DNA of 64,000 bases from contig OY762209.1 in the NCBI GenBank assembly GCA_963665295.1, forward strand, positions 5,088,001 to 5,152,000. The letters run 5' to 3'. Below are positions 2,911 through 14,392 of this stretch, piece by piece. Source of the stretch: Syntrophorhabdaceae bacterium (GTDB taxonomy: Bacteria > Desulfobacterota > Syntrophorhabdia > Syntrophorhabdales > Syntrophorhabdaceae). A program made the position numbers and the translations under genes. Within the stretch, counting starts at the first letter, position 1. Each line of letters opens with the position of its first letter. The notes under the pieces were generated by a model, which worked only from the letters and a program-made list of their open reading frames with translations, had not been told where the DNA came from and did not search any database.

Positions 2911-5346
2911 ATGCCCCAAAAGAATTTTCCACCAGATCCGCTAAACCAGGTCCGTAAGAAAGGCTCCATCATGCGAAAAGCGGTGACGCCGCTCATCCTG
3001 TTCATATTGTTCATTGCAGCCCTGCCCTTCCAGGGATATCCGGCACAGCCCACCTATCCGATCTCGACGCCCGTTCAGACTACACGGGAGCGCACGGTGA
3101 GCCCTGATCCGATACCCGACGCACCCCAGATTGCCATAGGGGAGGTGGACCAGTACCAGGCGTACGGATACAGTAGTTGGAGCGTCGGGGCCGGTGTCGA
3201 TTACGGGATACTTTCGCCGGAAGGACCCTATGTGGACTCCTACAACGCGGTGGAGACCCTTCTCACGTATTTCACCATGAGCGATATCCATATCACCGAC
3301 AAAGAATCCACTGCCCAGGCCCTCTATATGTCATACGGGCTCGGAACGTGGGGAAACTCCAACACCTCGGCATACTCTCCGATTATCCTGTCCACCACGC
3401 ACGTGCACGACGCGGCGGTGCAGACGATCAACGCCCTCCACAAGGAGGCGCCCTTTGATTTCGGCCTCTCCCTGGGCGACGAGACGAACAGCACCCAGTA
3501 TAATGAGGTCAGGTGGTTTATCGACGTCATGGACGGAAAAAAGATCACCCCAAGTTCGGGGGCGCACAAGGGAGCGGGCTCCATCGATTACCAGAAGCCC
3601 TACCAGTCGGCCGGGCTCGACAAGTCGATTCCCTGGTATGTGGTCATCGGCAACCATGACCAGTTCTGGTGCGGCTCCCTCTACCCCAACGACTATGTCC
3701 GGAGAGTCATGGTCGGCAATACGGTCCTCGATATGGGCAACGACGCAACAGGGGCGCTCTCGCTGGAAACTCGCGGTAACTACATGGGTGTGGTTGACGG
3801 GACGACACCGTACGGAACCGTCATAGACTATGGACCCGCTTTCAGCGCCATGCCCACGCCCATCGTGGCCGCCGACTCGAACCGCCGGAGCCTCAGCACC
3901 TCGACATCCACAACCTTGAACTGGATGAAAGAGTTTTTCAAGACCACGTCGCAACCGAAGGGCCACGGGTTCACCCAGGTAAACCTCGATAATGACTTCG
4001 CGTCCTACACCTTTGAGCCCAAATCAAGCGTGCCGGTGAAGGTCATTGTCCTCGACGACACCTGCAAGGAGAATCCTCTCAGCAGCCTGAGCCATTCATA
4101 CGCAAGAGGCTGCCTGGACCAGCAACGGTACGACTGGCTCGTCAGTGAGCTTAACCGGGGTCAGGCCGAGGGTAAGCTCATGATTGTGGCCGCCCACGTC
4201 CCGGTGGGACCTCAGCTCAATGTCCCCGACTACCCGGTGCCTCCGGGCTATCCCGCAAACTCGACGCCCGTGGCCGTCTTCCTCTCCACCTGCAACGCCC
4301 CCGGCTCAACTGTCGGCGTGCCTTGTAATAAGAGCATCGGGATCGCCAACAATAGCCCCGTTCTCCCTTACTCGGTCGTCACCGACGAGTCGCTCCTTAC
4401 AACGCTCCACAATTACTCGAACCTGATTCTGTGGCTCTCGGGGCACCGCCACCTCAATACCGTCAGCCCCAAGCCCGCGCCGAACGCGGAGACTCCCGAA
4501 TTCGGTTTCTGGGAGGTGGAGACCGCATCCCTCCGGGACCACCCCCAGACCTTCCGCACCTTTAAGATCGTCCGGAACGACAACAATACGGTCTCCATAT
4601 TCGTCACCAACGTGGACCCCTCCGTTGCCGGCACAGGCTCTCCCGCGGATAAATCCCGCGGCTATGCGATCGGCGCACAAAGGATCTCCATGGGCACCAC
4701 CTACGGGGGCCTCACCGATACCTACCCTCACGTCTATAACGCGGAGCTTATCAAACAGCTGGCCGCCCCCTATACCATCACGGTCAACGTGACCGGGCCG
4801 GGCTCCGTGCAGATGGGCCCCTATCAGGCCGCCACATGCTCCTCAAGCAGCCCTTGCTCAGCGTCCTATCTTCCGGGCACGGCGGTAAATCTCGCCGCCA
4901 CTCCCGCCTCCGGGGCCGTCTTTGCCGGGTGGTCAACCTGCGCGGGGACATCAACATGCAACGTTACCATGACCGACAATCTCACAGTAACCGCAGCCTT
5001 CACTCAGGCCCCCACCGCAATCACGACTCCGGCCTACAAGAACCTCGGGGCGGTAAAGAGGGGCAAAAAAGCGACCGCTACTTTCACGGTGAGAAATGCC
5101 ACGACCAAAGGCGTCGCCGATCTCACTCTCGGAACCGCTTCAATTACCGGAGCGGACGCGGGGCAGTTTCAACTTGTAGCGGGCAAAGACCGCTGCTCCG
5201 GCCAGACCATCAAACCGGGCAAGAGCTGCACCTTCCAGGTTTCTTTCGCACCCACTGCGACAAACACAAGGATGGGAACGGTTACCGTACCCTCCAACGA
5301 CTCCGGTTCACCGGCGACCGCACAGGTCGCGGGTACAGGAAAATAG
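2911..5346 (+). CDS. Secreted calcineurin-like metallophosphoesterase (RPA4764/TIGR03768-like) with C-terminal Ig-like/choice-of-anchor-D-like domains
   Basis: AAGGAGG RBS before ATG 2911; hydrophobic signal region; metal motifs SDIHITD, GDETN, GNHD, AAHVP, GHRH; C-terminal InlB-B-like repeat and ...PSND...GTGK. Confidence 0.85.
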   Translation: MPQKNFPPDPLNQVRKKGSIMRKAVTPLILFILFIAALPFQGYPAQPTYPISTPVQTTRERTVSPDPIPDAPQIAIGEVDQYQAYGYSSWSVGAGVDYGILSPEGPYVDSYNAVETLLTYFTMSDIHITDKESTAQALYMSYGLGTWGNSNTSAYSPIILSTTHVHDAAVQTINALHKEAPFDFGLSLGDETNSTQYNEVRWFIDVMDGKKITPSSGAHKGAGSIDYQKPYQSAGLDKSIPWYVVIGNHDQFWCGSLYPNDYVRRVMVGNTVLDMGNDATGALSLETRGNYMGVVDGTTPYGTVIDYGPAFSAMPTPIVAADSNRRSLSTSTSTTLNWMKEFFKTTSQPKGHGFTQVNLDNDFASYTFEPKSSVPVKVIVLDDTCKENPLSSLSHSYARGCLDQQRYDWLVSELNRGQAEGKLMIVAAHVPVGPQLNVPDYPVPPGYPANSTPVAVFLSTCNAPGSTVGVPCNKSIGIANNSPVLPYSVVTDESLLTTLHNYSNLILWLSGHRHLNTVSPKPAPNAETPEFGFWEVETASLRDHPQTFRTFKIVRNDNNTVSIFVTNVDPSVAGTGSPADKSRGYAIGAQRISMGTTYGGLTDTYPHVYNAELIKQLAAPYTITVNVTGPGSVQMGPYQAATCSSSSPCSASYLPGTAVNLAATPASGAVFAGWSTCAGTSTCNVTMTDNLTVTAAFTQAPTAITTPAYKNLGAVKRGKKATATFTVRNATTKGVADLTLGTASITGADAGQFQLVAGKDRCSGQTIKPGKSCTFQVSFAPTATNTRMGTVTVPSNDSGSPATAQVAGTGK

Positions 5347-6361: not shown

Positions 6362-6722
6362 AATTTCCTCCTGTTTATGTGAGAAATGGAAACGTCATTA
6401 ATCCTTTTGATACCTTTGGTCCGACCCGCCGCGGGTCTTATCGCGCCCGACCGCCGGCTCCGCCCTGCAAGGCAGCGGTTCTTGCGTGCCTCCATTTCTG
6501 AACCGCGGGCATCTCCCTGAGAATCTGCACGCACGGGTTACCCCGCCGGCTATTCGGCCTTACCAGGAAGATAAGGATTGAGAAATCGGTTTGCAAGGAC
6601 CGGAGGCAGACGACGTACAGGAATACACGGGCGATCAAAGGGCGTTCCCGTGCTCCCCCCTTCGTTATTGTCTGCATACGAGATGGACCGTCACAAAGAT
6701 GACAGCCCTTCCAACAAGTGAT

Positions 6723-6751
6723 TTCACTTTAAACCCGGTGCAGTGTATAAT
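6723..6751 (+). promoter_or_regulatory. Putative sigma70 promoter of the second metallophosphoesterase
   Basis: TTCACT-N17-TATAAT, ~75 nt upstream of the GTG start. Confidence 0.45.
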
Positions 6752-6827
6752 TTCATATTGTGAACCCGTGGCAGGTTCTTTGCAGAAAATGGATTTCAGA
6801 CATTACAGAGACAAGGGAGGAAAGTCT

Positions 6828-9248
6828 GTGATACACAAAAATGTTACCGAAAACCGGAACAGCCTGCTTTCTCAAAAAAGCTGCATAATCCGAAACGTGA
6901 CCGCACTGTCATTCCTGGTCTTCCTGTTTATTATGACCCTGCCGTTCCACGGATACCCGGCAGGACCCACGTACCCCATCTCCACTGATGTCCAGACCAC
7001 AAGGCAGAGGACAGTACGTCCCTCCCCTATACCCGAAGCGCCGGAGATCCCGATATGGCAGGTCGAGAATTATGCCGGATACGGGTACAGTAACTGGACA
7101 TTCGGAGACCCTGTCGACTACGGCAGACTCTTGCCGGACGGCTCCGAACCTGATGTATCCAACCCGGTCGAAACGCTACTAAATTACTTTTCCATAAGCG
7201 ATACTCACATCACCGACAAGGAATCGCCGGCCCAATCGCTCTACTTCGGGGTGCAGGGAGGTTTTGGAAGCGCCAACCTGCCGATGTACTCACCCGTTAT
7301 GCTGTCCACCACCCACGTTCTTGACGCGGTGGTCCAGACCATCAACGCCCTCAACACGGGGACGCACTTCGATTTCGGCATAGGGCTTGGCGATCCGGCG
7401 AACAGCAACCTGTACAACGGGCTCAGGTGGCATATCGACATTCTCGACGGAAAGTGGATCACTCCGAGCTCGGGTGCGCACAAAGGAGCGAAGACTATCG
7501 ACTACCAGAAACCCTACCAATCGGCGGGGCTCGACAAGTCGATTTCATGGTACCAGGTCATCGGCAACCATGACCAGTATTGGTCCGGCGCCTTCTATCC
7601 CAACGATTACCTTCGAAGCACCCTCGTGGGAAACACCGTTCTCAACATGGGCCTCGTGGGAGGGAACCCTTCCCTTGAGGCGCGCGGCATCTATATGGGC
7701 GTAATTGACGGGACTACCCCCTACGGGACCGTCGAGGACGACGGCGCAGCCTCGACCATGGAGCCGCCGAAGGTAGCCGCCGACAGTCGCCGCCGCGCAC
7801 TCACGACCCCCACGTCGTCGTCCCTGAACTGGATGAAGGAGTTTTTCAACACCACTTCGAAACCGAAGGGCCACGGGTTCACCCAGGCCAATCTCGATCA
7901 GGACTTTGTCTCCTACACCTTCGAGCCCAAATCGAGCGTGCCGGTAAAGGTCATAGTCCTCGACGACACGTGCAAGGAAAACCCGTACTACGGTTCGTAT
8001 TCCCACGGCTGCCTGGATCAGACACGGTATGACTGGCTTGTCAACGAACTTGACCAGGGTCAGGCCGAGGGCAAGCTCATGATCGTCGCCGCCCATGTCC
8101 CGGTAGGACCTCAGACAAATGTCCCCGACGCCCCGATTCCGCCGAACCCGCAGGCCCCCGCCGTTCCCAACGATACGGTCATCCCCATGTTCTTCTCCAC
8201 GTGCAACACTAACCCGACTTCCATAGGGGTCACTTGTGCCGCCGGTGTCGATATATCAAACAATGACCCGGTCTTCCCTTATACCGTCGTCACCGACTGG
8301 ACGCTCCTTCAGACTCTTCATAACTACTCGAACCTCATCCTCTGGATGGCGGGGCACCGTCACATGAATACCGTCACCCCGCAACCCGCACCCGTAGACA
8401 AGGGCCCGGAGTTCGGCTTCTGGGAGGTGGAAACCCCATCGACCAGGGACTTCCCTCAGGGGTTTCGCACATTTCAGATCGTTCGTAACGACAACAATAC
8501 GGTTTCCATATTCGTCACCAACGTGGACCCCGCGGTCCAGAACGGTTCTCCCGCGGACAAGTCCCGTGGGTATGCGATCGGCGCATACAGGATAGCAACC
8601 GGCACGCCCGGTCTCACTGATACCACCTCTCATGTATATAACGCGGAGCTTATCAAGCCCCTTGCCGATCCTTATACCATTACGGTCAACGTGACCGGGC
8701 CCGGTACGGTAGACATGGGCCCCTACCAGGCTGCCACATGCTCCGTGAGCAGCCCTTGTTCGGCGGATTATCTCCCGGGCACGCAGGTGGTCCTTGCCCC
8801 CATTCCCTCCACCGGGGCTGCCTTTACCGGGTGGTCGGTCTGTCCGGGGACATCAACGTGCAACATCATCATGACCGGTGATACCACGGTGACGGCAAGA
8901 TTCATCCAGTCTCCGACCGCGACCGCCGCCCCGACCTACAAAAACTTCCCTGTTACAAAGACCGGGAAGAAGGCCGTCTCCACCTTTACGGTCAGCAATA
9001 CCCGGGCGAAAGGCATCGTTGATCTTGCAATCGGTACCATTTCGATAGGCGGGCTAAACGCAGACCAGTTCCAGGTCGTGGAAGGCAAGGACCGTTGTTC
9101 CGGACAGATTGTCAAGCCGGGCAAGAACTGCACCTTTCAGGTTTCTTTCAATCCCACTTTGACGAATACCCGGGTGGCAACGGTTACGATACCCTCGAAC
9201 GACTCCGCTTCACCTACGACCATACCGATCACCGGAGCGGGAAAATAG
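6828..9248 (+). CDS. Secreted metallophosphoesterase, paralogue of 2911..5346
   Basis: GTG start after a GGGAGG RBS aligns with the paralogue's N-terminus; SDTHITD, GDPAN, GNHD and GHRH motifs; same C-terminal module ending GAGK. Confidence 0.85.
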   Translation: MIHKNVTENRNSLLSQKSCIIRNVTALSFLVFLFIMTLPFHGYPAGPTYPISTDVQTTRQRTVRPSPIPEAPEIPIWQVENYAGYGYSNWTFGDPVDYGRLLPDGSEPDVSNPVETLLNYFSISDTHITDKESPAQSLYFGVQGGFGSANLPMYSPVMLSTTHVLDAVVQTINALNTGTHFDFGIGLGDPANSNLYNGLRWHIDILDGKWITPSSGAHKGAKTIDYQKPYQSAGLDKSISWYQVIGNHDQYWSGAFYPNDYLRSTLVGNTVLNMGLVGGNPSLEARGIYMGVIDGTTPYGTVEDDGAASTMEPPKVAADSRRRALTTPTSSSLNWMKEFFNTTSKPKGHGFTQANLDQDFVSYTFEPKSSVPVKVIVLDDTCKENPYYGSYSHGCLDQTRYDWLVNELDQGQAEGKLMIVAAHVPVGPQTNVPDAPIPPNPQAPAVPNDTVIPMFFSTCNTNPTSIGVTCAAGVDISNNDPVFPYTVVTDWTLLQTLHNYSNLILWMAGHRHMNTVTPQPAPVDKGPEFGFWEVETPSTRDFPQGFRTFQIVRNDNNTVSIFVTNVDPAVQNGSPADKSRGYAIGAYRIATGTPGLTDTTSHVYNAELIKPLADPYTITVNVTGPGTVDMGPYQAATCSVSSPCSADYLPGTQVVLAPIPSTGAAFTGWSVCPGTSTCNIIMTGDTTVTARFIQSPTATAAPTYKNFPVTKTGKKAVSTFTVSNTRAKGIVDLAIGTISIGGLNADQFQVVEGKDRCSGQIVKPGKNCTFQVSFNPTLTNTRVATVTIPSNDSASPTTIPITGAGK
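8987..9084 (+). repeat. 98-bp segment (inside the CDS) repeated at 14295..14392
   Basis: Manual alignment gives about 10 mismatches in 98 nt with no gaps. Confidence 0.85.
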
Positions 9249-9400: not shown

Positions 9401-10909
9401 TCAGGGCGCCCGGCAGAGCCATTTTCTCCTCTCTTCTTCGTATTTCTCCTCTGCAATCGCCAATCGGGAAGGGTCCACAAGCCACCGCCAGGGAGCATCC
9501 ATATGCCACTGCCGGTGGACGTATTGCCCTATGCACTTGTCGTCAACAAACACTTTCATGGCTCCCCCCGGTACTTTGCCGAATAGAACGAATCTGAGCC
9601 TCAATCTGCCTTGCCCGAAAAAACGCAACATAGACTTGATGTGAAGATATCCGTCGAGCCTTCTCAAAACAATATTCCTGGTATTTCTCAATATTCTTGA
9701 GATGCGGGCATAGGCATAGACGCACATGCCCGCTAAGCCCCCGGCAACCGGGCGATGCCTCCCTTGCCCGTGCACGGCCGTGACACGGCCTTCCACCGCA
9801 CTCATGGGGACCGGGAAGGGGTCGTTTTCAGAGTTGTTGTCGCCGCGGGTCAGGAGACCGTCGGCGTGTACGGCCATGATCCGGTGGACCACCCTGATGC
9901 CCTTTACAGGATCGTGAAAACAGGCGACGTCGCCGCGGCGGGGATTCTTACCGTTGTAGGGTTCAACATCCAGAAAATCGGGCGCTTTCAACGTGGGATA
10001 CATGCTGTTTCCAGAGAGCGTCACACCCCAAGGCATGACCGGAACCCTCACGGAACTGCCGCCGGCAGATGGGTGCGCCACAGGGTATCCGCTCAGAAGG
10101 GGCTCTTTTTTTAACGACTCTTCGACCAGCTTCCAGAATTCTCCGGTCAGACCCAGATGAAGGATGTACGCATGCAGCGCCGCCGTCAGTGCACAGACGA
10201 TCGAGAATTGCCTCAAGCGGTTTTCCCGCACCTCGGGAAGGGATAATTGCCGGTCGAAAACACCGTTTACCTGTCCTACCGAGTCGATAAGCATGGCTGC
10301 AGCCTGGGTCGGATTGATTTCTTCTAAAGTATCTTCCGGGGAGCGACGGAGAAAGTAGAGAGCAGCGAGCGGTACGGCAGCGCCGGTATCCCAGGCGCCG
10401 CCCGGGCCGTCGTCATAAAAGCGGCTCCAAGTCGGCCAGGGATGTGCCAGATACTTTCCCTCCGGATCCCGTACGATAAGGACCGTATCGTCACAGAGCG
10501 AATGCCAGGGAAAAGGGAGCCTTAAAGATGCCGTGGTTTTTCCGGTACCTCCCGGCGCCGCAAAAAGAACCCCTTTCCCTTCGTACTCTGCGAGCGCGCC
10601 ATGCACAAGTACGCCGCCGTGGGTTTGGACTTCATGGGCAATGACCAGGCTAACCTTCATAGCCCTGGATACAAGGTCGAACCTATTTTGGGGTCGGGAG
10701 AAGCGGTAGACAATCATATCATCGTCTACGGAAAAGGCTTCCTCTTGCTCTTCCCGGGCGGTCATAACGCAAAGAGAACGACTCGCGACGCCGGTCTTGA
10801 GCATCATGGCGTTCGCCAGGAGTTCCACGACGGGCTCCATTTCCTTTGTTCCCGCGTGGATTTGTCTTCGGGAGCCGTCAGTCAGAGACAGCAGGTATGA
10901 TTTCCCCAT
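9401..10909 (-). CDS. scmC: SynChlorMet cassette ScmC-like HprK-related kinase fused to an S26/S24-type serine peptidase domain
   Basis: N-half: VHGALAE...GVLFAAPGGTGKTT (Walker A), SLCDD, AHPWPTWS. C-half: SGNSMYPTL, RRGDV, VVHRI, TRGDNN. It lies directly downstream of two rSAM genes. Confidence 0.78.
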   Translation of the reverse strand: MGKSYLLSLTDGSRRQIHAGTKEMEPVVELLANAMMLKTGVASRSLCVMTAREEQEEAFSVDDDMIVYRFSRPQNRFDLVSRAMKVSLVIAHEVQTHGGVLVHGALAEYEGKGVLFAAPGGTGKTTASLRLPFPWHSLCDDTVLIVRDPEGKYLAHPWPTWSRFYDDGPGGAWDTGAAVPLAALYFLRRSPEDTLEEINPTQAAAMLIDSVGQVNGVFDRQLSLPEVRENRLRQFSIVCALTAALHAYILHLGLTGEFWKLVEESLKKEPLLSGYPVAHPSAGGSSVRVPVMPWGVTLSGNSMYPTLKAPDFLDVEPYNGKNPRRGDVACFHDPVKGIRVVHRIMAVHADGLLTRGDNNSENDPFPVPMSAVEGRVTAVHGQGRHRPVAGGLAGMCVYAYARISRILRNTRNIVLRRLDGYLHIKSMLRFFGQGRLRLRFVLFGKVPGGAMKVFVDDKCIGQYVHRQWHMDAPWRWLVDPSRLAIAEEKYEEERRKWLCRAP

Positions 10910-10950: not shown

Positions 10951-12144
10951 TCAACGGACCGTATCCGGCATGAGGCGTGTTGTCCCTTGCGTGCTCCGGC
11001 CTTTCCTGCGGCGACTTGCCGGGAAAAGCCCTTGCCTGTCGGCCTCCCGGCATCGCGTGCCCGCCCATACCATACCTCCCCCTTTCCGGTAGTTTGCGGC
11101 AACGCAGCCGGTGCGGCACACGCGCGAGAGGATGCAATCCCCGCATATTCCCGGATACCCGAGATAATCTTCAAGCTCCCGCCGGAGACTTTGCAGTTTC
11201 GGGTGATGGAACCATATCTCCCGCACGCTGTCGCCCAGACGTCCATAGACAAGGGAGGGGACCGTCTGCCCAATGCCGCACATAGCGATCTCGCCCGTGC
11301 CCAGGATACCCAGAATACCGATGACGCCGCAATCCCCCGTGCGGCCCCCGGTTTCCATGAGCGTCCTGAAAGACCGGACGGCCGGCGGCAAATTGAGGAT
11401 GAAACCCTTGATGGACGTCTTTTCCTTCAGTTCGCCATACACATATTTCTCAAGGGCCCGCAGTTCCGTGATGCCGAGGGTTTCCCTGCGCGCCGTCATC
11501 TGCTTGCCCCGCCCGCTGTCGGTGACAGGATTGAATTTTACCGAGGCCACGCCATGCTTTGCCGCCAGGGATGCAACGCCGTCTATTTGAGAAACGTTTC
11601 CTCTATGGAGGCTCATGATGACCTGCGTGTTGTCGTATCCCGCTTCTTTGAGGCAGTCAAGTCCGCTCAAGGCGGCGGCAAAAGCGCCTCGGGCGCCTCT
11701 GAAGGCGTCGTGCGCCTCCTCGTCGGGATCGTCGAGGCTCACGGAAATGGAGCCTACTTTTGTGTTGTTCTTGAGCCAGTGCGCCAGCTCCCGCGTCATC
11801 AGGGTGCCGTTGGTCTCCATGTTCATGGTGAGGCCCATGTCGGAGAGCCCCGCCGCAATCTCCTTGAAGCGTGGATGAAGAAGGGGCTCGCCGCCCGTGA
11901 GTTTTGCCCTTGTCAATCCCAGGTTTTTGGCCTCTTTCACCGCGGCAAAAAGCGGTTCCGGGTCGATGCATTCCCGCGGGTCGGGCCTGCCGTCGATAAA
12001 ACGCGGCGTGACCCAGCAGTGGCGGCACATGAGGTTGCAGCCGGAGGTGAGATAGAGGTAAAAGGAGCGGAGCGGCGGCACACCTTGCGGCAGCTCCGGG
12101 AAAGATGACGATTCAACGGGAATTTCCGGATCGCAAAGGGACAT
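10951..12144 (-). CDS. scmF: Radical SAM/SPASM peptide maturase, ScmF-like
   Basis: FYLYLTSGCNLMCRHCW (CxxxCxxC), LTGGEPLLHP, METNGTL, SPASM Cys array CGDCILSRVCRTGC; probable start ATG 12144 after a GAGGA RBS. Confidence 0.85.
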   Translation of the reverse strand: MSLCDPEIPVESSSFPELPQGVPPLRSFYLYLTSGCNLMCRHCWVTPRFIDGRPDPRECIDPEPLFAAVKEAKNLGLTRAKLTGGEPLLHPRFKEIAAGLSDMGLTMNMETNGTLMTRELAHWLKNNTKVGSISVSLDDPDEEAHDAFRGARGAFAAALSGLDCLKEAGYDNTQVIMSLHRGNVSQIDGVASLAAKHGVASVKFNPVTDSGRGKQMTARRETLGITELRALEKYVYGELKEKTSIKGFILNLPPAVRSFRTLMETGGRTGDCGVIGILGILGTGEIAMCGIGQTVPSLVYGRLGDSVREIWFHHPKLQSLRRELEDYLGYPGICGDCILSRVCRTGCVAANYRKGGGMVWAGTRCREADRQGLFPASRRRKGRSTQGTTRLMPDTVR

Positions 12145-13258
12145 TCTTATCCTCTTTATATTTCTTGTAGCAGTTCCTTGGGTCAACGGCGTTTAACGTG
12201 CCGCATTGGGCGAAAACGACCGCCGGGCAGCCTCCTGTGCAAAATCCGGCATAGCTGCAGTCCCCGCATCCGGCGACCGTGGTGATCGGGGTTTCATAAC
12301 GTGTGCGCAGGATATTGATTTCCCGTCCTGAAAGCCACGCCTCGCGAAGCGGCGTAGAGCCGATCTTCCCCATGACCATAGTAGGCAGCATAGTGCAAGG
12401 GACGATAGCGCCGTCGTGGCGAATCGCCATCTTATTGAAAACTCCGCCACAGGCGGCAAGTTTTCCCCTGCCCGGCAGGCCGGTCTTGCCTTCGGCGAGG
12501 GCTCCTTCGATCTGAGCGACGTTTCTGGTGAAGGCCAGGGGTCCCGCTGCGGCTTTAATGCGTCCCGGGTAGCGCAGGGCAAGCTCTTCCATGGTTTTGA
12601 CGGCCACGTCCCACTCTTCGTTGGAGAGGATCACGTCCTGACCGGAGCAGCGGGCGGAGCCGAAGGGGTTGGCGCCGTCGGTGCTGAAGGATTTCAGCCC
12701 TGCGTCTTCGAGGAGCAGGACGGCGACGTTTTCCAGATCACGCACATTGTAGCGATTGACCGTGACCCGGACGGTAACAGGAAAATCATGTTTCTTGAGC
12801 AGGCGCAACCCGCGCAAAGCCCGCTCGAAGCTCGCAGGCGAACGAGTTGAGTCGTGGATCTCAGGCGTGGCTCCGTCGATGGATACCTGAATGGAATCGA
12901 GGCGCAGCCGGCGCTTGCCTTCACGGAAGGCGTCGATGACCTTGTCGTCGATGAGGGTGCCGTTGGAGAGAACGCTGTAGCGCATGCGGTTTTCGATCAC
13001 GCTGTCAACCAGTGTGAAAAAATCAGGACGAGTAAAGACCTCGCCGCCGCTTAAGGTGAGGCGCTCGACGCCTATTGCACCCGCCTCAACAAAAAACTCA
13101 CGCCACCGATCCGTAGGAAGATCGTCAAGGGCGGTCATTTCATCGGCGTAGAAGCAATAGCGGCACCGGAGGTTGCATTTACCCGTCAGACTGACCTGAA
13201 GGTTCGCGGGTGCGCCGCGTACACCGAAAGGATTGTTTTCACGTCTCCGAGGTTTCAT
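12113..13258 (-). CDS. scmE: Radical SAM/SPASM peptide maturase, ScmE-like
   Basis: LTGKCNLRCRYC, LSGGEVFTRPDF, VSIDG, SPASM Cys array ACGG...PC...CGDCSYAGFCTGGCP. Confidence 0.85.
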   Translation of the reverse strand: MKPRRRENNPFGVRGAPANLQVSLTGKCNLRCRYCFYADEMTALDDLPTDRWREFFVEAGAIGVERLTLSGGEVFTRPDFFTLVDSVIENRMRYSVLSNGTLIDDKVIDAFREGKRRLRLDSIQVSIDGATPEIHDSTRSPASFERALRGLRLLKKHDFPVTVRVTVNRYNVRDLENVAVLLLEDAGLKSFSTDGANPFGSARCSGQDVILSNEEWDVAVKTMEELALRYPGRIKAAAGPLAFTRNVAQIEGALAEGKTGLPGRGKLAACGGVFNKMAIRHDGAIVPCTMLPTMVMGKIGSTPLREAWLSGREINILRTRYETPITTVAGCGDCSYAGFCTGGCPAVVFAQCGTLNAVDPRNCYKKYKEDKNVPLRSGNSR

Positions 13259-13514
13259 CGTGGACGATTACAAAATCGGGCAGCAGGGATTCAATAAACC
13301 TCTCGACATCCTCCTGCACATGCGTGGCGCCTTCGGTGTTTGCCGCCAGATATGCCGAGATTTCCGCGGAGGTCCGGGGCCGGGCGATTCTGTCCCATAT
13401 GAGCCGTCCCGTTTCGTTGATCAGCACCACTTCGTCCGTATCGGGGTTGAAAAGCAGCGCCCCTTCGTCCTCGTCCCTTAGAGACACTACAGGATTTACT
13501 GCGTAACGCTTCAT
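13239..13514 (-). CDS. scmD: PqqD-family RiPP recognition element (ScmD-like)
   Basis: 91 aa, NPVVSLRDEDEGALLFNPDTDEVVLINETGRLIW...DVERFIESL; overlaps the rSAM start. Confidence 0.85.
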   Translation of the reverse strand: MKRYAVNPVVSLRDEDEGALLFNPDTDEVVLINETGRLIWDRIARPRTSAEISAYLAANTEGATHVQEDVERFIESLLPDFVIVHDETSET

Positions 13515-13807
13515 AGATTGACCTCATACCCGATTAATCCCGTATCCAGGAGAATATCCAGAATGGCCCGCACATCGTCCTCCAGCGTCGGTGGCGCATC
13601 AATAAAACATTTTGCCGTTTCCTCGATGATGTCCCCCACGGTGCGGACGCCGTTCACGAGCCGCCAGATCAAAAGTCCGGTTGAGTTGAGCGCAAGACCG
13701 GTCGGAACGTCCAGATTGACGATAACCGCCCAGCCGCCTGCGTCTTCCTGCAGGGCATACGCCGGATTGCCGACAGGCAGCGAATCTAAACCGATTTCCC
13801 CGATCAT
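13511..13807 (-). CDS. Second PqqD-family RiPP recognition element
   Basis: 98 aa, ALNSTGLLIWRLVNGVRTVGDII...DVRAILDILLDTGLI; ATGA overlap with the next gene. Confidence 0.85.
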   Translation of the reverse strand: MIGEIGLDSLPVGNPAYALQEDAGGWAVIVNLDVPTGLALNSTGLLIWRLVNGVRTVGDIIEETAKCFIDAPPTLEDDVRAILDILLDTGLIGYEVNL

Positions 13808-13963
13808 TCAGATTTCCATTCAATGTCGTTAAGTTCTATTTATAGCGTATAAATCACTAATTGGCAATCACAATAATATATTGGCGGAATAATTTGTTGA
13901 AGTTGCAATCGTAAATGTGGTATTCAAATGATAAATCACAGATCAAAAGGAGGTTCGGTCAAC

Positions 13964-14164
13964 ATGAAGAAAACATCCTCCCCCACATCGACACCGGTCA
14001 TGGACAGCCCGGAGACTAAAGCGGCCAAGCGGTACGTCCCACCCACTGCGCTTCGGTTCGAATACTCTGTGGCGCACGCAGCCTGCAGCTATGGATCCGA
14101 CGCCCCCACCGGGTGCAGTACCGGCGCCGTCGCCTTCGGCTGCACCAATGGGACCAACGAATAA
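13964..14164 (+). CDS. Putative RiPP precursor peptide (ScmA-like), 66 aa
   Basis: AAGGAGGT RBS; leader with KRYVPP (YxxP); core with CSYG, CSTG and CTNG; divergent from the PqqD/rSAM operon. Confidence 0.78.
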   Translation: MKKTSSPTSTPVMDSPETKAAKRYVPPTALRFEYSVAHAACSYGSDAPTGCSTGAVAFGCTNGTNE

Positions 14165-14294: not shown

Positions 14295-14392
14295 TACGGT
14301 CAACAATACCCGGACGAAAGGCATGGTTGATCTTGTAATCGGCACCATTTCCATAGGCGGGTTGAACGCGGACCGGTTCCAGGTCGTGGAAG
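14295..14392 (+). repeat. Degenerate non-coding copy of 8987..9084 (metallophosphoesterase C-terminal fragment)
   Basis: About 90% identity by manual alignment; intergenic. Confidence 0.85.

Follow-up and report, generated by a model that had tools for sequence, protein, structure and literature searches.

The window analysed here is a 64,000-nucleotide stretch of a Syntrophorhabdaceae bacterium genome (contig OY762209.1), in which a gene for a 66-residue ScmA-like precursor peptide occupies positions 13964-14164 of the plus strand (ATG at 13964, TAA at 14164). A Shine-Dalgarno sequence, AGGAGG, lies on the same strand at 13948-13953, 10 nt upstream of the ATG. Translation gave cysteines at residues 41, 51 and 60, each followed directly by Ser or Thr and each with a Gly at +3, just as an earlier note on this DNA had read them. 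The same note expected so short a frame to be missed by gene callers; however, the exact 66-residue form is already a called protein in a public collection (NCBI, Logan and ENA), where it makes up a cluster of one. A longer 78-residue form starting at 13928 was rejected, as no Shine-Dalgarno sequence was seen for it and it is absent from that collection. The open reading frame recurs without variants in DNA contigs of four runs, two of which may be the source of this DNA; no RNA run containing it was listed. When the peptide was shuffled 200,000 times, three CxxG units appeared with a frequency of 0.00019 and three [AG]C[ST]xG units not once, figures that alone overstate the case because the motifs were chosen post hoc. 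Promoter and terminator scans stayed at chance level, and folding downstream of the gene was unremarkable (z = -0.02). The 66-residue open reading frame is a real gene.

Diverging from it on the minus strand is a five-gene cassette encoding two RREs, ScmE, ScmF and a ScmC-S26 fusion, and the best NCBIfam matches of all five neighbours are SCM models (the TIGR04248-TIGR04252 set). The SynChlorMet definition asks for adjacent ScmC, ScmD, ScmE and ScmF genes, and all four types lie side by side here. Both RREs are PqqD/ScmD-like: D1 (13511-13807) scored 50.8 bits with Pfam PqqD and D2 (13239-13514) scored 42.9 bits, and with the ScmD model TIGR04248 they reached 47 (D1) and 34 bits, below the curated cut-off of 100. 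The ScmE-like (12113-13258; TIGR04250, 365 bits) and ScmF-like (10951-12144; TIGR04251, 299 bits) radical SAM/SPASM enzymes likewise remained below their cut-offs of 400. ScmF was taken to start at ATG 12144; its open frame extends to a TTG at 12186, and its residues are numbered on the slice 10954-12123. The fifth gene (9401-10909) fuses the HprK-like kinase ScmC, with His103, GxGKT and the pair Asp140-Asp141, to an archaeal/ER-type S26 signal peptidase of the Ser-His-Asp kind, and is the only one to pass a curated cut-off (TIGR04249, 148.7 bits over 125); it also matched TIGR02228 with 48.8 bits.

ScmE was found in nine of the 61 related genomes searched, in none of the three of the same genus and in two of the 36 of the same family. 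Two same-family relatives share the order D1-D2-ScmE-ScmF-precursor-ScmC/S26-ABC-nucleotidyltransferase. Compared with these nearest relatives, the window precursor has moved upstream onto the other strand, and the ABC exporter and nucleotidyltransferase are absent from the cassette; three sister loci (L014, L018 and L022) also carry the precursor on the opposite strand. The genome's nearest ABC exporter match (40% identity) lies elsewhere, in a lasso-like cluster, and its only NTP_transf_5 gene (G000:C1:2870074-2871306, L086), about 34% identical to the SCM-linked ones, sits beside a polysaccharide-export-like locus. A 98-nt direct repeat at 14295-14392 (plus strand), 90% identical to 8987-9084, is a remnant of a flanking metallophosphoesterase gene; the two copies bracket the cassette and precursor, which fits a rearrangement or insertion. 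The remnant derives from the 3' region of that gene and lies on the far side of the cassette from the tandem TIGR03768-like metallophosphoesterase paralogues at 2911-5346 and 6591-9248, which are 74-83% identical in repeated DNA blocks.

Two further clusters were noted in this genome. A second RiPP-like cluster (G000:C1:660112-666436; L089, L136) holds three radical SAM genes, a PqqD gene, an S24/S26-like gene bearing a GxSMYP motif, and a short precursor rich in Cys whose leader differs (YxKPELIVLVRGRPEE type); similar peptides occur in L024, L032 and L038. The lasso-like cluster (G000:C1:380800-393255, L135) comprises PqqD, an asparagine-synthase-like cyclase, an HprK-like kinase, a sulfotransferase, a radical SAM enzyme, a transglutaminase-like protease and an ABC exporter, and adjoins a tandem run of about six genes with tail-collar domains; a precursor was not found in it.

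Short open reading frames were then collected beside ScmE and ScmF homologues, a check that the earlier note had proposed. A scan with ScmE gave 302 relatives, and the best 80 of these 302 loci were kept. A motif filter beside ScmE gave 73 candidates, of which 7 were dropped by eye; a profile built from the remaining 66 recovered 9 more, giving 75 precursors in 59 loci with conserved YxxP leaders and C-x2/3-G repeats. The motif counts below rest on 73 precursors, two of the 75 having escaped parsing and a stop-interrupted copy in L011 having been left out; one row (L025_9931) is anchored on a leader Cys, and L103 is the same contig as L020. A second peptide set of 150 proteins was reduced to 142 by removing 7 long and 1 unparsed. 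Among the best 80 of the 302 relatives, 59 ScmE loci thus carry a family precursor; of the 21 that lack one, 17 stop at ScmF or no more than 300 bases past it, and the other four offer 3.7-4.9 kb in which none was found. Several loci hold more than one set of parts: L025 has two ScmF genes and five precursors, L104 (G046:C20:222000-241999) has two RRE-ScmE-ScmF sets in tandem, and the omitted frame of L011 (4306-4596) is a third precursor copy with one in-frame stop after its first Cys.

The HMM of the 66 precursors from ScmE loci, which excludes the window peptide, put that peptide (E = 3.1e-6, 29.9 bits) ahead of all others when the 101,102 stop-to-stop frames of the genome were searched; the runner-up frame reached only E = 0.1. 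Across the 61 related genomes, precursor and ScmE occur together in seven, ScmE alone in two and the precursor alone in one; another profile detects a precursor in one of the two genomes with ScmE alone. In a search of 1.84 billion representatives, the family profile gave matches to 2,354 clusters with E values of 0.001 or lower, a count that includes some unrelated repeat proteins; the taxa comprise Chloroflexota, Thermodesulfobacteriota, methanogenic archaea and candidate phyla. The window peptide was not matched at E up to 10 by TIGR04252, the curated model for ScmA, which requires 35 bits, and a six-frame search of the genome with this model gave no match at the precursor position. The same model was matched weakly (E up to 1) by 6 of 24 homologues, the best at 31.4 bits, and by 4 of 10 further proteins, the best at 30.5 bits, all below its cut-off. 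The window peptide has no Pfam or NCBIfam match, a word-based homologue search returned only the peptide itself, pairwise BLAST to a sister precursor aligned the leader and nothing else, and its ESM Atlas matches were all below 0.9 and serve as leads only. By these sequence comparisons the window gene encodes a divergent precursor of the ScmA-like kind, which the profile places within the wider family and whose score leaves it out of the TIGR04252 equivalog. It is very likely the cognate precursor of the adjacent SCM cassette. The broad precursor family is thus much wider than the curated model, which misses the window peptide.

The family profile and motif statistics bore out the earlier reading of the peptide as a RiPP precursor whose leader carries a YxxP motif of the RRE type and whose Cys unit is repeated three times. 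The predicted core comprises 27 residues (14081-14161, plus strand) with three C-x2-G units (C41/G44, C51/G54 and C60/G63). Family cores contain 3-7 Cys, mostly 9-12 residues apart, and the window spacings are 10 and 9. A Gly stands at +3 or +4 of 323 of the 330 family Cys (229 at +3, 94 at +4), compared with a shuffled mean of 126 and a maximum of 149 in 500 shuffles, and this register is kept in the first repeats of all 73 precursors and in the last repeats of 70. The two distances are often mixed within one peptide, so the Gly, alternating between +3 and +4, may be a turn residue rather than an acceptor. About 68% of repeats have Ala or Pro three residues past the Gly; the window core has Ala there in its first two repeats. 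Cys and Gly are the only near-invariant core residues, and the number of Cys is odd in 46 of 73 cores. Members of unusual build were also seen: P0037 and P0087 are very long, carrying 21 and 20 perfect repeats of C-x2/3-G, and P0060 is a precursor fused to a C-terminal T9SS/FlgD-like domain.

In the leader, the RRE-binding motif is Y24-x-x-P27-x-A-L-R-F32 (14033-14059, plus strand), with binding predicted from homology to LppB. The family leader reads YxxP-x-[A/I/V]-x-[R/D]-L, with Leu at Y+8 in 63 of 73 precursors and 127 of 142 in the second set; the Phe of the window peptide at this position is the single case among 73. The leader ends V-A-H-A, in which Ala37-His38-Ala39 (14072-14080, plus strand) forms a putative (-3,-1) signal-peptidase-type site that would make Ala40 the first core residue and place Tyr24 at -16; A-H-G-x-C leaders occur in relatives. 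A small-x-small site before the first Cys is present in 57 of 73 precursors (shuffled mean 33, maximum 45, 2000 shuffles) and in 125 of 142 in the second set, and it ends two or three residues ahead of that Cys. Cleavage at Ala39, or within one residue of it, is accordingly a likely outcome by family comparison.

For D1, the best PDB match was 9x8z (E = 3.5e-6), and the D2 profile had the same best match. According to the accessible part of PMC13381572, 9x8z is LppB bound to a YxxP leader. The Tyr-binding Asp70 and Pro-fixing Asn33 of LppB align with the conserved D69 and N33 of D2 and with an Asp and an Asn of D1, and LppB Phe74 is matched by the conserved F73 of D2. On this homology, D1 and D2 very probably bind the YxxP leader of the precursor. 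RREs of the D1 type form their own clade (27 rows, support 98/91) in a tree in which some position labels are wrong, and they accompany fused ScmC-S26 in 17 of 24 loci, a count confounded by kinship. In one related genus of the same order (five genomes), 15 of 29 precursor-bearing frames also encode an RRE ahead of the leader and in frame with it, with one stretch counted twice via overlapping loci, and one fused RRE passes the ScmD cut-off (108.7 over 100). Such natural RRE-precursor fusions support the partnership of RRE and leader. The fusions are L113:1411-2229 (minus strand) and those of L114/L127, L116, L118, L121, L122, L124, L126, L129, L130, L132, L133 and L134 (genomes G043, G046, G047, G057 and G095), in which the combination of ScmD-type RRE, YxxP leader and C-x2/3-G core is dispersed over several places per genome. 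A literature search for RRE-precursor fusions of the ScmD type found none.

Both radical SAM enzymes retain the CxxxCxxC motif and the SPASM (3+7) Cys expected of sactipeptide and ranthipeptide enzymes and stand alongside two RREs; these Cys are conserved in 72-75 of 75 ScmE homologues and in 67-69 of 69 ScmF homologues. The best solved match of both is the sactisynthase SkfB. As described in the accessible part of Precord et al. 2023 (PMC10288494), StsB and BlaB, which are related to MftC, make thioethers from Cys to the alpha-carbon of Gly (sactionines), and six catalytic-site positions are defined for such enzymes, reading Y-T-I-S-K-L in StsB and Y-T-F-S-Q-L in SkfB. Mapped by motif, the six positions of ScmE read F-[S/T]-L-S-[H/N/T]-[M/L], close to StsB and SkfB and also near PqqE (S-S-I-S-H-A). 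After the ScmE model itself, the best NCBIfam models of this enzyme were WgkB, AhbD and NirJ, none of them thioether synthases. ScmF, mapped in the same way, reads W-T-E-S-G-I, which matched no thioether synthase compared and differs from PqqE as well, and its polar site (E103, K74, Q167, K196 and N198) is conserved in at least 90%. ScmE also has a basic insertion at residues 111-120, F-x-x-G-K-R-R-x-R-L, conserved in at least 90% of 75 homologues, which may serve to hold a phosphorylated substrate or an acidic face of an RRE.

Given the near-invariance of Cys and Gly and the odd Cys counts, tandem Cys-to-Gly rings made by ScmE are the most economical model. Two known layouts were rejected for this core: the CX3D ranthipeptide, as an acidic acceptor at +4 occurs at only 19 of 330 Cys, and the StsA-type hairpin (CxCxC-x4-GxGxG), as the window Cys are spaced by 10 and 9. 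Cys thioethers are the most likely chemistry on this evidence, and the window product probably carries some Cys thioether. That the linkage runs specifically from each Cys to the Gly of its own repeat is a narrower prediction, to which we give slightly less than an even chance.

For the kinase-peptidase fusion, the ScmC profile had an HPr kinase as its best PDB match (E = 3.4e-5); the kinase His, Walker A motif and acidic pair are conserved, as are the Ser, His and Asp of the S26 domain. Of the 59 precursor loci, 56 have a ScmC-like kinase, 53 an S26 peptidase, 30 an ABC exporter and 27 a nucleotidyltransferase, and every locus with S26 also has the kinase. The accessible part of Popov et al. 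2026 (PMC13381572) describes a related arrangement in the LPP pathway, where the RRE recognises a YxxP leader, whose Tyr is at -16 from the SpI-type cut, and helps the SpI-type Ser-His-Asp peptidase to remove it, and an HprK-like kinase adds phosphate to a single Ser close to the beginning of the core. Radical SAM enzymes do not appear in the main text of that paper, and the LPP product is linear.

Which hydroxyl residue ScmC would use was approached through residue counts. The earlier note had proposed [A/G]-C-[S/T]-x-G as the repeat unit and the Ser/Thr beside each Cys as the phosphorylation site. The first part is true of the window peptide but does not extend to the family (12 of 330 Cys contexts, and 33 of 713 in the second set). 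The second part did not stand as a conserved feature, and C-[S/T] was rejected as a family motif: it occurs at 85 of 330 Cys (26%, against a background of 22.5%, p = 0.17) and at 188 of 713 in the second set (26% against 23.7%), both at background level, and it is missing altogether from 25 of 73 precursors. A Ser directly after the Gly was more frequent in first repeats (31 of 73) than in later ones (56 of 250), and likewise in the second set (96 of 141 against 106 of 556), a set picked by a profile that favours Ser and containing kin that are not independent. In the window core this residue is Ser45, directly after the first Gly, which is a better kinase candidate than the Cys-adjacent Ser/Thr. 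First-repeat Ser occurs in 27 of 66 precursors at kinase loci; since the kinase is near-universal, the phosphorylation site is not fixed across the family. By analogy with LPP, a core starting at Ala40 puts Ser42 at core residue 3, like the LPP site, so Ser42 may also serve. Phosphorylation of some core Ser or Thr, with Ser45 as first choice, is fairly probable.

From the open reading frame, its family membership, the cassette genes and their intact catalytic motifs we infer each enzymatic step of the following pathway. D1 and D2 would bind the YxxP leader of the precursor; ScmE would link the sulfur of every Cys to the alpha-carbon of the Gly at +3, so that three sactionine rings arise in tandem; a Ser of the core, most likely Ser45, would receive a phosphate from the ScmC kinase; ScmF would add a second, different radical modification; and cleavage after Ala39 by the S26 domain would release the 27-residue core. 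The chances that the pathway holds as a whole, from RRE binding through the three Cys-Gly rings, the Ser phosphorylation and the ScmF reaction to the Ala39 cut, we consider about even.

The strongest alternative keeps the peptide as cognate precursor and links its Cys elsewhere, either by a thioether to another residue, for example to the beta-carbon of the Asn, Ser or Asp after the Gly (ranthipeptide-like) or across repeats, or with ScmE and ScmF each acting on a different member of the C..G pair, which would give a new ring or backbone type. The residue after the Gly is Ser, Asn, Asp or Thr in most repeats, with Asn dominant in the later ones, and the distance from Gly to the next Cys peaks sharply at 7 (113 of 253); the presence of two different radical SAM enzymes and the distinct polar site of ScmF also speak for such a linkage. 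However, near-invariance is limited to Cys and Gly, the acidic +4 acceptor of CX3D ranthipeptides is missing, and the last Cys keeps its downstream Gly in 70 of 73 precursors where no further Cys follows. We regard this alternative as possible though rather doubtful. Less probable still is a small repeat scaffold in which the Cys are free, metal-bound or in disulfides and the enzymes modify other positions of a linear, LPP-like product, by epimerisation, phosphorylation and further decoration of phospho-Ser. The members with 20 and 21 perfect repeats suggest a structural repeat, and the RRE, kinase and peptidase parallel LPP; against this, pairing by disulfides alone is hard to reconcile with the odd Cys number of 46 of 73 cores, precursor and ScmE go together in seven genomes rather than singly (two and one), and the best solved relative of both radical SAM enzymes is a sactisynthase. 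We consider it improbable. A third alternative, a decaying remnant gene within a cassette that was rearranged and has lost parts, with no product made in this organism, would suit the displacement of the precursor from its place between ScmF and ScmC in the nearest relatives, the missing exporter and nucleotidyltransferase, the bracketing 98-nt repeat, the failure to find it in three of three same-genus genomes searched and the Phe in place of the conserved Leu, but is very unlikely with all five enzyme and RRE genes open, their catalytic motifs all intact, a strong Shine-Dalgarno sequence, YxxP, small-x-small junction, three C-x2-G units and Gly+3 Ala kept, and three sister loci sharing the opposite-strand precursor.

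Returning to the preferred reading of tandem Cys-to-Gly rings and phosphorylation, the class itself is a database definition: NCBIfam names the SCM cassette, including the precursor model ScmA. No paper on the SCM cassette or its chemistry was found in the literature searched, which took in few subscription journals and part of the supplements. The accessible parts of PMC6423787 and PMC12710340 held no SCM content and one supplement of PMC10288494 no Scm term; the dataset of the latter and the supplements of PMC13381572 could cover SCM enzymes. The cassette class is thus catalogued already, and the window peptide adds a divergent member that TIGR04252 misses. Tentatively, SCM may represent an undescribed RiPP class in which two radical SAM/SPASM enzymes are grafted onto the kinase, RRE and signal peptidase core of LPP, to make from 3 to more than 20 tandem Cys-to-Gly rings and a phospho-Ser, with ScmF performing a new reaction. 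If this is true, the window locus, with a minimal three-repeat substrate and a compact cassette of five enzyme and RRE genes, would be roughly the smallest complete system for demonstrating SCM chemistry. The LPP work gives testable roles to three SCM parts and leaves the action of ScmE and ScmF on C-x2/3-G as the question.

Set against known systems, the window has the same gene set as the SCM definition of NCBIfam and differs from it in its two RREs, the ScmC-S26 fusion, the divergently placed precursor and the absence of exporter and nucleotidyltransferase from the cassette. As far as the accessible part of PMC10288494 describes them, StsA/StsB and BlaA/BlaB resemble SCM in the stand-alone RRE, the MftC-related radical SAM/SPASM enzyme and a core with only Cys and Gly invariant; however, StsA forms a nested hairpin with a single enzyme, whereas the window combines tandem C-x2/3-G units about 10 residues apart with two radical SAM enzymes, a kinase and a signal peptidase. 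By this analogy the precursor is probably like a Cys-Gly sactipeptide in its cross-linking, and the features compared leave it short of a full sactipeptide assignment. Paeninodin-type lasso peptides share the [Y/W]xxP leader, discrete RRE and HprK-like kinase according to the accessible part of PMC13381572. They differ in the macrolactam cyclase, the B2 protease and the penultimate leader Thr, the last being a lasso rule given in the accessible part of PMC10368454; none of the three occurs in the window cassette or leader, and a lasso reading was rejected on this ground. The LPP system (LppA/B/K/S/D/N) has in common with the window the YxxP leader, discrete RRE, HprK-like kinase and archaeal-type Ser-His-Asp peptidase. 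Its NTP transferase and MsbA-like exporter are absent from the window cassette and often present in homologous SCM loci, and of its leader consensus YxxPxVLxHQxIxFETxxS the window peptide shares YxxP alone. Hence the precursor would be LPP-like in leader binding, phosphorylation and trimming while falling outside LPP by its membership tests, and the Cys-Gly repeats and the two SPASM enzymes are specific to SCM.
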